A stretch of 64,000 nt of DNA from Eledone cirrhosa. Its lineage: Eukaryota. The notes beneath the pieces were generated by a model. That model saw only the letters and a program-made list of their open reading frames with translations, was not told where the DNA came from and made no database searches. Positions 581 through 4,927 of the stretch are shown piece by piece. Numbering within the stretch: the first letter of the stretch is position 1; each line of letters begins with the position of its first letter. Made by a program: the position numbers and the translations under genes. The stretch covers positions 3,596,001 through 3,660,000 of the forward strand of contig OZ024757.1 in the NCBI GenBank assembly GCA_964016885.1, read 5' to 3'.

Positions 581-680
581 CATATGTGTGTGTGCGCATG
601 TAAATGTGCGTGTGCTTATATATATATATATATATATGAAATATTGTTACGAGAGGGTTACGTTTACATAATGTTTTATT

Positions 681-756
681 GCATTATATTTATTTCAATG
701 ATATGGTTATGCAATGGTTAAATCATTGACAGTCTCCATGTGACATCATCAGATGC
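681..756 (-). ncRNA. Type I hammerhead ribozyme, variant with an extra segment between the core and stem II
   Basis: The minus strand reads GCAT-CTGATGA-TGTCACATGGAGACTGTC-AATGAT...ATCATT-GAAA-TAAATA-TA-ATGC. The core boxes are intact, stem I is GCAT/ATGC, and the putative cleavage triplet is AUA. Confidence 0.55.
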
Positions 757-800
757 TCATGGAATTTTGAGGTGTAGTTATGCAAATATGCATATGTGCC

Positions 801-861
801 GCTGCTAATGTATTACCAGCTTGGTGTGATGCGTGTAACAAGGTGGTAATGCATTACCAGC
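801..861. repeat. Imperfect inverted repeat (fold-back), ~23-bp arms
   Basis: GCTGCTAATGTATTACCAGCTTG pairs with CAAGGTGGTAATGCATTACCAGC. Confidence 0.8.
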
Positions 862-917
862 ATACATACATATATATATATATATATATATATATATATA
901 TATATATATATATATAA

Positions 918-1088
918 TATTAATTCAAAATATTAACAAAAATAGAACTTCTTGTGATCAAGTATATTTTATTATACATATTTCAGAGGTACTGAGCTAA
1001 CTTCAACAGTATGTCCTCATCAGATAAAATAAGATGAGGCATGACATACCCTGACATAGTAGATGGTTAAGATCCAGTCATGGTAGTC
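918..1088 (-). mobile_element. Short HHR-bearing non-autonomous element (Penelope pLTR-like / retrozyme-like), flanked by (TA)n
   Basis: The reverse complement aligns closely with ~4665-4833. (TA)n tracts lie at 869-917 and 1089-1103. Confidence 0.75.
965..1031 (-). ncRNA. Minimal type I hammerhead ribozyme
   Basis: The minus strand reads TATTTTAT-CTGATGA-GGACATACTGTTGAAGTTAGCTCAGTACCTCT-GAAA-TATGTA-TA-ATAAAATA. It has a perfect 8-bp stem I, an intact core and a short near-palindromic stem III. Confidence 0.85.
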
Positions 1089-1145
1089 ATATATATATAT
1101 ATAATAAAAGGACGAGGTGTTAGATCTTCATTACATTTATTGATG

Positions 1146-1183
1146 TGATCAATCACGAAACGCGCGCGTTTCGTGATTGATCA
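1146..1183. repeat. Perfect 38-bp palindrome centred on GAAACGCG|CGCGTTTC
   Basis: TGATCAATCACGAAACGCG followed directly by CGCGTTTCGTGATTGATCA. Confidence 0.9.
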
Positions 1184-1246
1184 GCTCAAGCTTCGATCTG
1201 TATCGATAGGGCTTCGATCTGGAATCAAAAGCTCATCAGACTTCTG
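1161..1246 (-). ncRNA. Candidate disrupted hammerhead ribozyme
   Basis: The minus strand reads CAGAAGT-CTGATGA-GC...ATCAATCAC-GAAA-CGCGCGCG. GAAACGCG is a common stem III in Penelope-associated minimal HHRs. The 3' arm of stem I is missing, replaced by the palindrome. An A/C-rich minus-strand segment (1250-1560) precedes it and may be an element 3' UTR. Confidence 0.4.
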
Positions 1247-1642
1247 TTATGGTAATGAAAATGATTCCTATACAACTTTGAAACAGTACATATCAGTTCT
1301 CATCATTTATGGTGGTAAATTCTACTCCATATTGATTGGAGGTTTTGGGGAGAAGAAATATTTGGTTATATGGGATGGGTAAGGAGGAGAATTAGGAGGA
1401 AGAATGGGGTTGTGGAGATGAAAGAATGATGGTGGGGTACACCTCTTGATAGATGTCGTGTGGGGTGGTGTTTTGGTTGCTTCTTAGACATTTTAGCGTT
1501 TATGTGGCGATGTGGGGGTGTTAGGGTGAGATTCAAGCGATGAATAGATGCTCGTAAACTATATATATATTTATATATATATGTGTGTGTGTGTGAGTGT
1601 GAGTGTGTGTGTGTGTGTGTGTGTGTGTGTGTGTGTGTGTGT

Positions 1643-1822
1643 GAGTTAATCGGTCGGGGTACCGAAAACGATAAAAGGAAAACATGAAACGAAATTTCAT
1701 TTCTCACTCTTAGTACGGCTGTTACTTAAATATAAGTATTTATACGTACATACATATATGTACGTATGAATGTTCGGTGAATCCATACGTACTTATATAT
1801 ATGTGTGCATGTATGTATATAT
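1643..1822. mobile_element. Rearranged fragment related to the element at 7984-8585
   Basis: 1643-1666 matches 8069-8092 (direct), 1684-1730 matches ~8466-8513 (reverse complement), and 1769-1822 matches 8358-8411 (direct). Confidence 0.75.
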
Positions 1823-2640
1823 AGAGATAGAGAGAAGAAATTAACAAGAGGATGGATAAGACTCATATAACGTAATTTGGGGGAAATATATTCTAAGTAT
1901 ATATCTAATAGTACGTGTATTTACGATTAAATATTTGTTAAAATTCTTTTCTAATATAATATTTACCGTTATAAGTAAATAGAAAAATAAATAGATAGAA
2001 GAATAGATAGAAAAATAAATAGAAGAATAGATAGAAAAATAAATAAATAAATAAATAAATAAATAAATAAATAAATAAATAGATAAATAGATAAATTTTA
2101 ACAAAAGAATTTTAATAAATATTTAATCGTAAATACACGTACCATTAGATATAAACTTAGAATATATTTCCCCCAAATTACGTTATATGAGTTTTATCCA
2201 TCCTCTTGTTAATTTCTTCTCTCTATCTCTCTCGTAATATTTTTTTATTTTTTCTCTCGCTCTTTCTCCAGTGTCATTTAAATAAACGGTTGTTTTTTAA
2301 AATTATTTACATATTCATTTGCTTATTCAAACATAAGTTTGTTCACACATAACCCCTAATATATTTCCACTATCCAGTGAATTTCCAACCGATAAGGTAT
2401 GATTTTCCTGCGTATGTCTCTATTTATAAAACAAACTTTGTATTTTATCTGATGAAAGCGTACCAATGGTGTCTTAGTTACCCTTGAAATATATATAATA
2501 AAATAAATATGGTTTTATAAATATAGTTTCCATTTATTTAATATCATTGAATATTTACTCCAGTAATTTGTTGAGTGCTCTAAATCAGTTATAAACATAT
2601 ATATTTGTCGGACTTCCAACAAATTAAATATCACTTCTAC
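1822..2640 (+). mobile_element. HHR-bearing non-autonomous element with a 5' inverted duplication
   Basis: Arms of ~129 bp at 1822-1950 and 2103-2231 are reverse complements around a TAGA/TAAA spacer. The HHR is at 2441-2505. The 3' tail is homologous to 3462-3592 and ends in ACTTCTAC just before (TA)n. Confidence 0.7.
2441..2505 (+). ncRNA. Minimal type I hammerhead ribozyme
   Basis: TATTTTAT-CTGATGA-AAG...CTT-GAAA-TATATA-TA-ATAAAATA. It has an 8-bp stem I and a palindromic ATATATAT stem III. Confidence 0.85.
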
Positions 2641-2641
2641 T

Positions 2642-2708
2642 TATATATATATATATATATATATATAGAGAGAGAGAGAGAGAGAGAGAGAGAGAGAGAG
2701 AGAGAGAG
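2642..2708. repeat. (TA)n(GA)n compound microsatellite
   Basis: Direct reading. Confidence 0.95.
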
Positions 2709-3066: not shown

Positions 3067-3140
3067 ACTACTACTACTACTACTACTACTACTACTACTA
3101 CTACTACTACTACTACTATATATATATATATATATATATA
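3067..3140. repeat. (CTA)n followed by (TA)n microsatellite
   Basis: Direct reading. Confidence 0.95.
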
Positions 3141-3186
3141 ATACGATATATTAACAAATGGAAACTATATTTATAAAACCATATTT

Positions 3187-3250
3187 ATTTCATTATACAT
3201 ATTTCAAGGACACCAAGTTAAATTATGGTGTGCTTTCATCAGATAAAAAT
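3187..3250 (-). ncRNA. Minimal type I hammerhead ribozyme (left arm of palindrome)
   Basis: The minus strand reads ATTTTTAT-CTGATGA-AAGCACACCA-TAATTTAACT-TGGTGTCCTT-GAAA-TATGTA-TA-ATGAAAT. Confidence 0.85.
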
Positions 3251-3396
3251 ATAATATAGAGCATTTTTATAAATAAATATTGACATACCCTTAAATAATG
3301 CGACCATTTCTGTTGGAAGCTCCGGAAGCATCCAACAGAAATGGTCGCATTCTTTAAGGGTATGTCAATATTTATTTATAAAACCGATCTATATTA

Positions 3397-3461
3397 TATT
3401 TTATCTGATGAAAGCACACCCTAATTTAACTTGGTGTCCTTGAAATATGTATAATGAAATA
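3397..3461 (+). ncRNA. Minimal type I hammerhead ribozyme (right arm of palindrome)
   Basis: TATTTTAT-CTGATGA-AAGCACACC...GGTGTCCTT-GAAA-TATGTA-TA-ATGAAATA, with one G-U pair in stem I. Confidence 0.85.
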
Positions 3462-4224
3462 AATATGGTTTTATAAATATAGTTTCCATTTGTTAATATA
3501 TCGTATTTTTACTCCAATAATTTGTTGAGTGCTTTATATCAGTTATAAAAATATTTGCTTGTTGTATCCTAACAATTTAAATAGAACTTCTACATATATA
3601 TATATATATATTTGTGTGTGTGTGTGTGTACATATATGCGTATGTATATACGAGTATGCCCATGCATAGCAACCCGTACATTTGTGTGCAAAGTTATACA
3701 CGCGCATGTCTGTTATATTTCTAAATCTTAATTATTCCTCATCTGTGCCAGAGAGTGCCCGTGAATCTGTTTACACACAACAGACTTCCAGATAACCCTT
3801 CAGTTGTTTCCCTTGATCCATTTTCCACTGGACAGAATAACCCTAGAAATTGGTGAGTTCGATTTCAAATGGTTTTCCAGTTTTCAGCCCAGAATTACCT
3901 CCCCTGATTACAATATACATCTCTACTCTTAGGAGAGAGATTTAACCTAGGGACAACTTCTTCCTCCTTTTATCAACATGCCTGAAAGAAGGGCCAGTTT
4001 AAAAGTGCCTCTGCCAAATACCCTGGTGGCCAGGACTGGACCTGAAACCATTGGTAGCAGATTCGTCTTAAGTGTTGTTACCCCCCCCCCCCTCCCCCGC
4101 ACACACATATATACACATACACACATATACACACACACACACACATATATATATATATATATTCTTTTTTCTTTGCAAGGTTTCTGATATGAAATCGTGT
4201 GTTGAAACATTGTTTACTCCGTGT

Positions 4225-4310
4225 TTCCTCCCCTTTTATTGTAAAGTTTACTCCATTTTTATTTAACTTTTATTAAAAATGGAGTAAAGTTTACAATACA
4301 ATCGGAGGAA
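4225..4310. repeat. Imperfect inverted repeat (fold-back)
   Basis: TATTGTAAAGTTTACTCCATTTTTA pairs with TAAAAATGGAGTAAAGTTTACAATA. An outer TTCCTCC/GGAGGAA pair closes it. Confidence 0.85.
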
Positions 4311-4315
4311 GCATA

Positions 4316-4370
4316 ATAGTACCACTGATGATGTCACAGATGTGTGACGAAAGAACTTTGATAGACTATA
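4316..4370 (+). ncRNA. Candidate hammerhead core (stems I and III not resolved)
   Basis: CTGATGA-T-GTCACA-GATG-TGTGAC-GAAA gives a perfect 6-bp stem II between the two core boxes. It shares CTGATGATGTCACA with the HHR at 681-756. Confidence 0.5.
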
Positions 4371-4487
4371 TATATATATATTTATAGCTGTATTTTTAAC
4401 CGTTGGTCAATCAATGATAAACATTGATTGCCAAATAAATTAACTATGGAGATATAAAAGATACAGAAGCGAAAACCAACCAAACAG

Positions 4488-4529
4488 TTCTGTTATTATT
4501 TCTGTTATTATGTTCTGTTATTATTTCTG
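4488..4529. repeat. 12-bp tandem repeat (TTCTGTTATTAT), about 3.5 copies
   Basis: Direct reading. Confidence 0.85.
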
Positions 4530-4571
4530 GCAATATTACAACCAACAATATGACCCTCCCCAAGTATAACA

Positions 4572-4648
4572 ATATATATATATATATATATATATATATA
4601 TATATATATATATATATATATATATATATATATATATATATATATATA
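4572..4648. repeat. (TA)n microsatellite
   Basis: Direct reading. Confidence 0.95.
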
Positions 4649-4927
4649 AGATTCAGTCATGGTACTACCATGACTGAATCTTAACCATCTCCTATGTCAG
4701 GGTATGTCATGCATCATCTTATTTTATCTGATAAGGGGACGTACTGTTGAAGTTAACTCAGTACCTCTGAAATATGTATAATAAAATATACTTGATCACA
4801 AGAACATCTATTTTGTTAATATTTTGAATTAATATTAATAACTCTGGAAAAGAATGGCTGTTGAGTGCTTCCAATCTACTGTAAAACTCAGTATTTGATT
4901 TATTCATTGAACCTTGTTTAACTTTTA
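4648..4927 (+). mobile_element. HHR-bearing element with a 5' fold-back, same subfamily as 918-1088
   Basis: It begins with the palindrome AAGATTCAGTCATGGTA-C-TACCATGACTGAATCTT (4648-4682). The HHR is at 4720-4788, the tail contains GTTGAGTGCT, and (TA)n lies on both sides. Confidence 0.75.
4720..4788 (+). ncRNA. Minimal type I hammerhead ribozyme with a G8->A core mutation (probably inactive)
   Basis: TATTTTAT-CTGATAA-GGGGACGTACTG...CAGTACCTCT-GAAA-TATGTA-TA-ATAAAATA. Confidence 0.75.

Follow-up and report, generated by a model that had tools for sequence, protein, structure and literature searches.

Short hammerhead-bearing inserts among (TA)n runs of Eledone cirrhosa: probable 3' ends of Hydra-clade Penelope-like elements and a bulged hairpin near their junctions

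Among the systems described so far, the Hydra clade of Penelope-like elements (PLEs) with a C-terminal endonuclease (EN+) comes closest to the units considered here. Its members are reported to be short, to carry a hammerhead ribozyme (HHR) near the 3' end and a CxCx5C linker, to target (TA)n, and to show frequent 5' truncation, inverted 5' copies and a tail on one end only (PMC8557442). A cluster of small units of this kind is found in a stretch of 64,000 nucleotides from Eledone cirrhosa (GenBank assembly GCA_964016885.1, contig OZ024757.1, positions 3,596,001 to 3,660,000; hereafter the window, numbered from its first letter). The first 10 kb of the window form an island of short inserts among (TA)n runs, simple satellite follows from approximately 10 kb onward, and the GC content is 26-36%. 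The units differ from the published account of the clade in having no open reading frame (ORF) and in their tails, which are 55-85 nt long as opposed to 30-40 nt, and the window HHRs differ in an 8-nt stem III and a long stem II (PMC8557442).

That the units have the end anatomy of the Hydra clade is in our view very likely. We also consider it likely that they are 5'-truncated Hydra-clade 3' ends, consisting of a pseudo-long terminal repeat (pLTR) with or without a tail and residing in (TA)n, and that a bulged hairpin positions the start of reverse transcription. The units as such are ordinary PLE debris of a known kind; what is added here is the clade-wide hairpin and a rule for the position of the junctions relative to it. 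The words 'hairpin' and 'stem-loop' do not occur in the main text of PMC8557442.

Other PLEs offer partial parallels. Minimal type-I HHRs with a palindromic stem III are known from metazoan PLEs, mostly as single motifs ascribed to truncated elements, and opposite-strand pairs lie 100-700 bp apart (PMC4209133); families A and B of the window depart from these in closing stem II with A-U or G-U and in having no unpaired base after A9. In the Poseidon element PAc two start sites of the reverse transcriptase (RT) define the tail and the targets are AT-rich, as here, and its HHR is dispensable for insertion and protein-assisted in vitro (PMC11167929). Initiation in PAc is reported to take place at an AC-rich stem-loop within the ORF that has no homology to the target, whereas the ends described here lie approximately 8 nt before one of two hairpin copies in the untranslated regions (UTRs), beside a TAT. 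Solo pLTRs, palindromes at inverted junctions, an optional tail and action in trans are shared with the Penelope element of Adineta vaga, which belongs to a different clade, has visible target-site duplications and, in the accessible part of its description, no hairpin (PMC3846280).

Hammerhead motifs and families of units

A first-pass annotation of the window, made from the letters alone, reported five related minimal type-I HHRs within positions 637-4927 (965-, 2441+, 3187-, 3397+ and 4720+, with the strand as sign), together with three further candidates. A type-I structural descriptor finds intact cores at 1023-, 2449+, 3242- and 3405+, and the CUGANGA and GAAA core, stems I and II and a UH cleavage site are all present in 965-, 2441+, 3187- and 3397+. 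The core of 4720+, at 4728+, reads CTGATAA, i.e. it carries a G8A mutation. None of 300 dinucleotide shuffles matches the four intact cores (shuffle mean 0); with one core mismatch allowed, five motifs are observed against a shuffle mean of 0.16 and a maximum of 3. A covariance model built solely from 45 HHRs of coding loci elsewhere (the call in locus L087 belonged to a neighbouring insert and was excluded) places 2442+, 966-, 3398+ and 3182- at the top (rough E 0.0015-0.064), followed by 678- (0.31) and 4721+ (1.5). The candidates 1161- and 4325+ are absent from the covariance-model list.

Stem II differs between the families while its pairing is kept, as the first-pass annotation had stated, and the changes can be read directly from the sequences. 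Two double changes separate B2 from B1 (A-T to G-C and C-G to T-A) and two further ones separate A from B (G-C to A-T and A-T to G-C), and a C-C mismatch at stem II position 4 is kept in A, B1 and B2. Judged by shape and sequence, the five main motifs are real. Chance matches in AT-rich, repeat-rich DNA would be in line with the low GC content, with the modest model E-values and with an Rfam search of the window that listed no hammerhead family at E<=1; this explanation is hardly credible, since no shuffle reaches the observed count, the core is conserved family-wide and stem II shows double changes, and for the five main motifs a chance origin is already excluded; 1161- and, in part, 4325+ may be such matches. 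The matches that Rfam did list are microsatellite and hairpin microRNA look-alikes under the gathering score.

The number of insertions is smaller than the number of motifs. In a masked self-BLAST, 3187- and 3397+ are the two arms of a single inverted duplication (3141-3506, 95% identical), and the five motifs therefore represent four insertions. Family A comprises 917-1087- and 4664-4835+ (93.6% identical) and family B 2421-2640 and 3373-3593 (75.7% identical). Stem III is an 8-nt self-complementary, dimer-permitting sequence with a computed self-duplex of only -2.2 to -3.2 kcal/mol; six window HHRs, including that of the neighbouring Penelope ORF, share a stem III of this length, which is seen in only 2 of 53 coding loci elsewhere.

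The three further candidates fared differently. Candidate 681- has the 8-nt stem III and UA site of the others; under a descriptor adjusted after the fact its stem I measures 4 bp and stem II retains 7 of 9 pairs, and it is probably a degenerate HHR. A perfect core and a 6-bp stem II (0 of 500 shuffles) are present at 4325+, but stem I has 2 bp and runs into (TA)n, and stems I and III are weak. Candidate 1161-, whose stem II is irregular and whose stem I lacks its 3' strand, is not supported as called. The fold-backs proposed on the 5' side of the HHRs stand at 1823-2230, 3141-3506, 4222-4313 and 4649-4681; that at 801-861 is weak (74%, E 0.007), and the 965- unit has none. All seven units within 637-4927 contact a TA-type repeat on at least one side, as had been proposed.

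Family A was followed in reads and contigs with the span of A2 (277 bases) as reference and a likeness threshold of 80%. Matches were found in 2,252 contigs (set X1), in 2,602 of 12,467,656 raw reads (set X8), in 79 contigs of set X4 and in 8 contigs of set X5, which comes from a second organism; the summed contig depth was not taken as copy number. The core G8 is intact (4733 A>G relative to A2) in 566 of 590 and 245 of 260 reads, so A2 with its G8A is a mutant copy of an intact high-copy family. Among the 40 variants listed of 113, many fall in loop 2 and in the hairpin loop, and the listed stem changes 4768 T>C, 4788 A>G, 4845 T>C and 4846 G>A preserve pairing, being one-sided and compatible. 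At its 3' end the family passes into (TA)n in 265 and 127 reads and in 15 contigs, and two X5 contigs end tail-less in (TA)n. A pile-up of X8 read ends at 4827/4830 was discarded as a tail-less end: it sits on AATT in a restriction-site-associated DNA (RAD) library and probably reflects a restriction site. The exact family pattern gave no stretch in metagenome contigs.

The bulged hairpin and the (TA)n junctions

A2, B1, B2, C1 and C2 share a bulged hairpin of the form RCTC-stem-loop-TW-GAGY-RCT, written RCTC-stem-TH-GAGY-RCT when coding Hydra elements are included. For comparison, 94 loci were collected with a Hydra-type protein profile. Metagenomes supplied 78 of them, after retention of the best 80 of 567, and genome contigs the other 16; the profile found no Hydra-type relative in viral contigs. 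In 80 loci the sequence extends 150 nt or more past the ORF, and 53 of these yielded an HHR. The hairpin follows the HHR core by 61-140 nt in 35 of the 45 coding loci that are informative, the corresponding distance in the window units being 106-113 nt; in 6 of the remaining 10, (TA)n is reached ahead of the place where the hairpin would lie. The hairpin is also found at most 170 nt before the ORF in 43 of 52 loci, usually twice. As background, the pattern has 14 matches in 178,924 nt of ORF.

In 78 aligned hairpins, which leave out those with a nested GCTC or an inner part above 18 nt, the first inner pair, not demanded by the pattern, is paired in every case (CG in 54, UA in 24). Covariation in the inner stem amounts to 0.286; shuffles give 0.109 and slid controls do not exceed 0.114. 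Relatedness of the loci inflates these figures. The outer pair is A-T in all five window copies and G-C in 74 of the 78 aligned hairpins, and the outer 4 bp and the trailing RCT are invariant in sequence. A hairpin model built without window sequence recovers the copies at 3501, 9131, 2547 and 5134 (rough E 2e-5 to 0.06). A shuffle test of the pattern in the window is not counted as evidence, because the pattern was drawn from those very copies and the test is circular. A TAT stands at -10 to -3 before 61 of the 78 hairpins (shuffle mean 28.6, maximum 43). The motif can be read by eye in published consensus sequences, namely in the tails of Hydra-2_Amil and Hydra-2_Ajap and at the start of Hydra-1_Ajap. 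A description of it was found neither in the literature within reach, which did not extend to Repbase, subscription journals and bioRxiv supplements, nor in Rfam searches with eight loci.

Among 161 flanks that abut (TA)n, 58 have a read-through homolog, and 27 of these have a hairpin within 120 nt and can be scored. In 23 of the scorable junctions a hairpin lies 0-10 nt, mostly 8 nt, beyond the end; outside the window this holds for 18 of 22. Several of the 23 come from one family and one (L082-475) is a low-complexity match. Tail-less ends precede the first hairpin and six tailed ends precede the second. The other 31 flanks are mostly 5' ends or unrelated DNA, and two of them run into variant hairpins at +7 and +10. 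The tail-less ends of the window at 917, 3141, 5082, 9079 and 9253 lie 4-8 nt before the hairpin position, 5 nt in the case of the 3' end of A1. In a contig with several such families, L082:500-571 is an insert that consists of tail only, with AT-rich and TA repeats at its sides; it starts with the first hairpin and stops 8 nt short of the second.

We lean towards a role of the hairpin in the RNA, where it would position the RT. Alternatively, the hairpin could work in DNA, as a site of the GIY-YIG nuclease or as a promoter element, the junctions then being cuts or transcript starts. The invariant outer 4 bp and trailing RCT would suit such a site, some element 5' ends likewise lie 0-12 nt before a hairpin, and a D. 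virilis nuclease required tail sequence for recognition (cited in PMC11167929). We nevertheless regard a DNA-level role as rather unlikely: the one-sided 2-nt bulge, the G-U pairs, the free loop length and the covariation of the inner stem suit a single strand, and the rule is obeyed by 3' ends of dispersed, non-tandem insertions in (TA)n. This alternative concerns the role of the hairpin, while those discussed below concern the origin of the units, and not all of them are mutually exclusive.

How PLE tails and inverted ends are formed and why PLEs favour microsatellites are stated to be open questions in PMC8557442, and just one PLE has been reconstituted so far (PMC11167929); for these reasons the hairpin rule matters. 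A covarying motif that forecasts both 3' ends within approximately 10 nt across many families is a precise target for mutagenesis, and the junction rule makes the origin of PLE tails directly testable. The hairpin can also serve as a marker for ORF-less fragments derived from Hydra-clade elements. A further prospect is RNA-templated insertion into (TA)n, for which it is a candidate minimal signal.

Origin of the units and a proposed mechanism

Coding loci of other contigs yield comparable debris. A TA-flanked head-to-head HHR palindrome at L087 5012-5304, with one tailed and one tail-less arm, is 95-97% identical to the end of the coding locus L082, and L087 5703-6116 stands in the same relation to the coding locus L010; the layout of these palindromes is that of B2. 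Four contigs (L080, L082, L087 and L090) are pile-ups of several families among TA runs. The order of HHR, hairpin, tail and (TA)n and the spacing between them are alike in the units and in the coding Hydra-type loci, and a tail on one end only and an inverted 5' copy are found in B2, A1/A2 and C1/C2. According to the first-pass annotation, units that are always 3' ends of coding Penelope copies would be ordinary truncations, and for families A and B the palindromes of other contigs suggest this by analogy. Its minimal type-I HHRs, their derivation from Penelope-like elements, the preference for (TA)n and the inverted duplications on the 5' side are supported, with the mobilising enzyme narrowed to the Hydra clade. 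Its notion of a separate non-autonomous system is unproven: the fold-backs are private to single copies, reads of family A extend further 5', and coding families give equally short units. The probable source of the units is coding parents that were truncated, and not a short family of its own.

A true non-autonomous origin would mean that A and B (and C) are short non-coding RNAs with a Hydra-type pLTR and hairpin, copied in trans by a Hydra-clade enzyme. A high copy number is indicated by the 277-base reference, which has matches in 2,252 contigs and in 2,602 raw reads out of 12.5 million. Moreover, pLTRs are able to act in trans (PMC3846280), non-autonomous Chlamys families are on record, and the HHR of B1 is preceded by approximately 400 non-coding bases, in which the longest frame from stop to stop has 53 codons. 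The starts of the two A copies differ by no more than 3 nt and the three 5' stops of family C coincide on one base, as would be expected of a short RNA whose 5' end is fixed. Upstream of the A2 start, however, 165 reads and one contig of the second organism (169 nt) continue in shared sequence; the 5' fold-back of A2 has a depth near zero and other copies show other inversion joints. A length of 400 nt is within those of coding 3' UTRs (56-524 nt, and 402 nt in the element next door), and coding families yield units of equal length. We consider this origin unlikely.

Spread as non-LTR retrozyme monomers, via circular RNA from two tandem HHRs, appears very unlikely. Retrozymes are small, non-coding, AT-rich and pLTR-related and carry a type-I HHR (PMC7229834; bioRxiv 10.64898/2026.07.22.740005), and in size, low GC content and HHR type the units agree with them; according to the preprint, retrozymes descend from pLTRs and many of them are monomers, and C2 holds a partial head-to-tail repeat. 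Retrozymes are defined by head-to-tail repeats and circular RNA, whereas the window units are single or head-to-head, tailed, and bounded by TA junctions. The window holds no head-to-tail HHR repeat, C2 has no HHR, and among the family A joints listed none is a head-to-tail (go-back) joint, the contigs being able to show presence and not absence.

Several observations weigh against truncation of Hydra-clade parents with the hairpin as RT start site. For none of families A, B and C was a coding parent found; neither the 3' UTR of the neighbouring ORF nor the 94 loci have useful DNA similarity to them. The loci are interdependent, several belonging to one family, and were chosen as coding, and their relatedness bears on the covariation as noted. 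The hairpin model built without the window misses the hairpin of A2, the HHR model misses the HHR of the neighbouring element at 7405, and 4 of the 27 scored junctions lie 35-67 nt from the next hairpin. The variants considered for A2 are 40 of 113, and the agreement of 5' stops within families A and C was mentioned above. In all five main motifs the HHR shape is not the minimum-energy fold of the monomer (z -0.15 to -1.5), as is expected for motifs reported to need dimers (PMC4209133). Finally, the initiation site of the anole element is reported not to be homologous to the cut DNA, unlike the annealing proposed below.

If the units are truncated Hydra-clade ends, their formation may be pictured as follows. 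As described in the literature, the GIY-YIG domain would nick AT-rich DNA and the RT would extend the nick from internal RNA sites. The enzyme would bind the bulged hairpin, present twice in the 5' UTR/tail, and the nicked (TA)n end may anneal to the TAT approximately 6-8 nt upstream of the hairpin, where copying would begin. A start at the first hairpin would give tail-less ends and a start at the second tailed ends; two internal start sites would thus explain the occurrence of both. Copying would mostly halt within 30-500 nt, a fold-back or second priming would create the inverted arm de novo at each insertion, and the entry of new inserts into the TA flanks of older ones would build up the cluster. 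In C1 and C2 each inverted arm carries the variants of its own copy, which suggests that the arm is rebuilt anew at each insertion. HHR cleavage is predicted to take place only as a dimer via the palindromic stem III, or with the aid of protein, and would not be needed for insertion.

A broader proposal, which we put forward tentatively and with more doubt than confidence, is that the twin hairpin could be a clade-wide RT-positioning signal, with (TA)n annealing to UAU in the manner of telomerase; any RNA with the approximately 40-nt signal could then be mobile, including 3' cleavage products of the HHR. The three 5' stops of family C lie 41 nt before the hairpin, and the distance from cleavage site to hairpin in coding loci ranges from 36 to 61 nt. 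Family C possibly consists of copies of such a product; if so, it would document in the genome that PLE ribozymes cleave in vivo, and it would represent a minimal non-autonomous parasite. One TA-flanked unit, L082:7705-7808, has an inverted arm that starts at the predicted HHR cleavage site of its family. It is a single exact case, and no general link between 5' truncation points and the cleavage site was found in a table swamped by TA matches.

Neighbouring Penelope ORF and further features

The units and their neighbours are listed in Table 1. The Penelope ORF begins 370 bases beyond the span covered by the first-pass annotation (637-4927) and is 46-49% identical to relatives of approximately 700 amino acids. 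The relatives carry RWK, DKT, CxCx5C, CxxC and CxH and lack CCHH. The ORF itself has the RT followed by a C-terminal GIY-YIG, no CCHH, the CxCx5C linker with its second Cys changed to Arg, CxxC and CxH; the RWK/DKT region was lost by truncation. Pfam matches are weak (GIY-YIG at E 0.035 in the ORF, RVT_1 on one of four relatives). Such motifs, a short size, a canonical HHR and a location nearly always in (TA)n are diagnostic of the Hydra clade (PMC8557442), to which we assign the ORF from its motifs and not from a tree. The HHR of L082 at 8474 equals that published for Hydra-2_aMil when the two are compared by eye.

A further motif, 402 nt after the ORF stop, is probably the HHR of this element. 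Its 3' UTR is unlike family A or B, and the element is therefore a relative of their parent and not the parent. At its 5' junction, a 51-nt piece not derived from a PLE (5242-5292) is an inverted copy (98%) of 7779-7829, approximately 250 nt past the 3' end, and looks like a templated insertion. The Penelope tail is cut off directly after the HHR by the first of two copies of a repeat (approximately 7530-7725 and 63770-64000), which we take to be similar to the short interspersed elements (SINEs) of cephalopods.

Table 1. Positions of the units and neighbouring features in the window
Feature	Position	Strand	Content and basis
GIY-YIG fragment of a separate Hydra-type element	119..270	+	tblastn E 4e-4, translation
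Unit D0	638..861	-	Weak fold-back 801-861, probable degenerate HHR (core 752, 8-nt stem III), (TA)n end
Unit A1, family A	917..1088	-	Intact HHR core 1023, no fold-back
Unit D	1104..1559	.	TA-flanked; palindrome 1140-1189
Unit B1	1823..2641	+	Inverted repeat 1823-1965/2088-2230, intact HHR 2441-2505, hairpin 2557-2579, tail to (TA)n
Unit B2	3141..3593	+	Head-to-head palindrome of tail-less and tailed arms
B2 tail-less arm	3141-3322	-	HHR 3187-
B2 tailed arm	3323-3593	+	HHR 3397+, hairpin 3511-3533
Unit E	4222..4366	+	Fold-back 4222-4313; candidate HHR at 4325, its core followed through with a perfect stem II but weak stems I and III
Unit A2	4649..4925	+	16-bp fold-back 4649-4681, G8A HHR, hairpin 4841-4869, tail to (TA)n
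Unit C1	5082..5216	+	HHR-less fold-back, hairpin 5145-5171, tail, between TA runs
Hydra-clade Penelope ORF	5295..7003	+	5'-truncated, frameshifted; RT C-terminal part, Cys linker, GIY-YIG
Probable HHR of the neighbouring element	7402..7520	+	Variant core CCGATGA; stem I of 3 bp, stem II of 10 bp with a long loop, stem III of 8 nt
Unit C2	9080..9253	+	Fold-back point as C1, hairpin 9142-9168, tail, then second tail-less arm copy

Some units call for comment. D0 has no hairpin, and its similarity to locus L068 (E 0.005) was set aside, the match in L068 having no HHR. The connection of the inverted repeat of B1 to its HHR part is not proven, and unit E has no TA run on its left side at 4222. The palindrome of unit D is centred on a 10-nt self-complementary sequence resembling stem III, and the arm on the + strand is similar to the Hydra HHR found in L025, except that the core is broken; a relic in which two 3' ends meet is possible. 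After the GIY-YIG fragment, a short region at approximately 395-575 may correspond to the N-terminus of an RT from a long interspersed element (LINE).

Sixteen contigs of the comparison set that are filed as bacterial genomes (L079-L094) bear Hydra-type elements and (TA)n and are most likely animal host DNA in bacterial bins. Elsewhere in the window, a 203-nt fold-back occupies 7997-8199, and related repeats with short palindromes are found at 1674-1815 and 8355-8524; no HHR or Hydra hairpin was found in them. A small element resembling a miniature inverted-repeat transposable element (MITE), with terminal inverted repeats, lies within (TA)n at approximately 9880-9952. It is followed by a 22-nt satellite (10103-12615), a 12-nt satellite (12718-13784) and a 49.5-kb array of 5-nt units of the GTGTA/GTGTG type (13907-63371).

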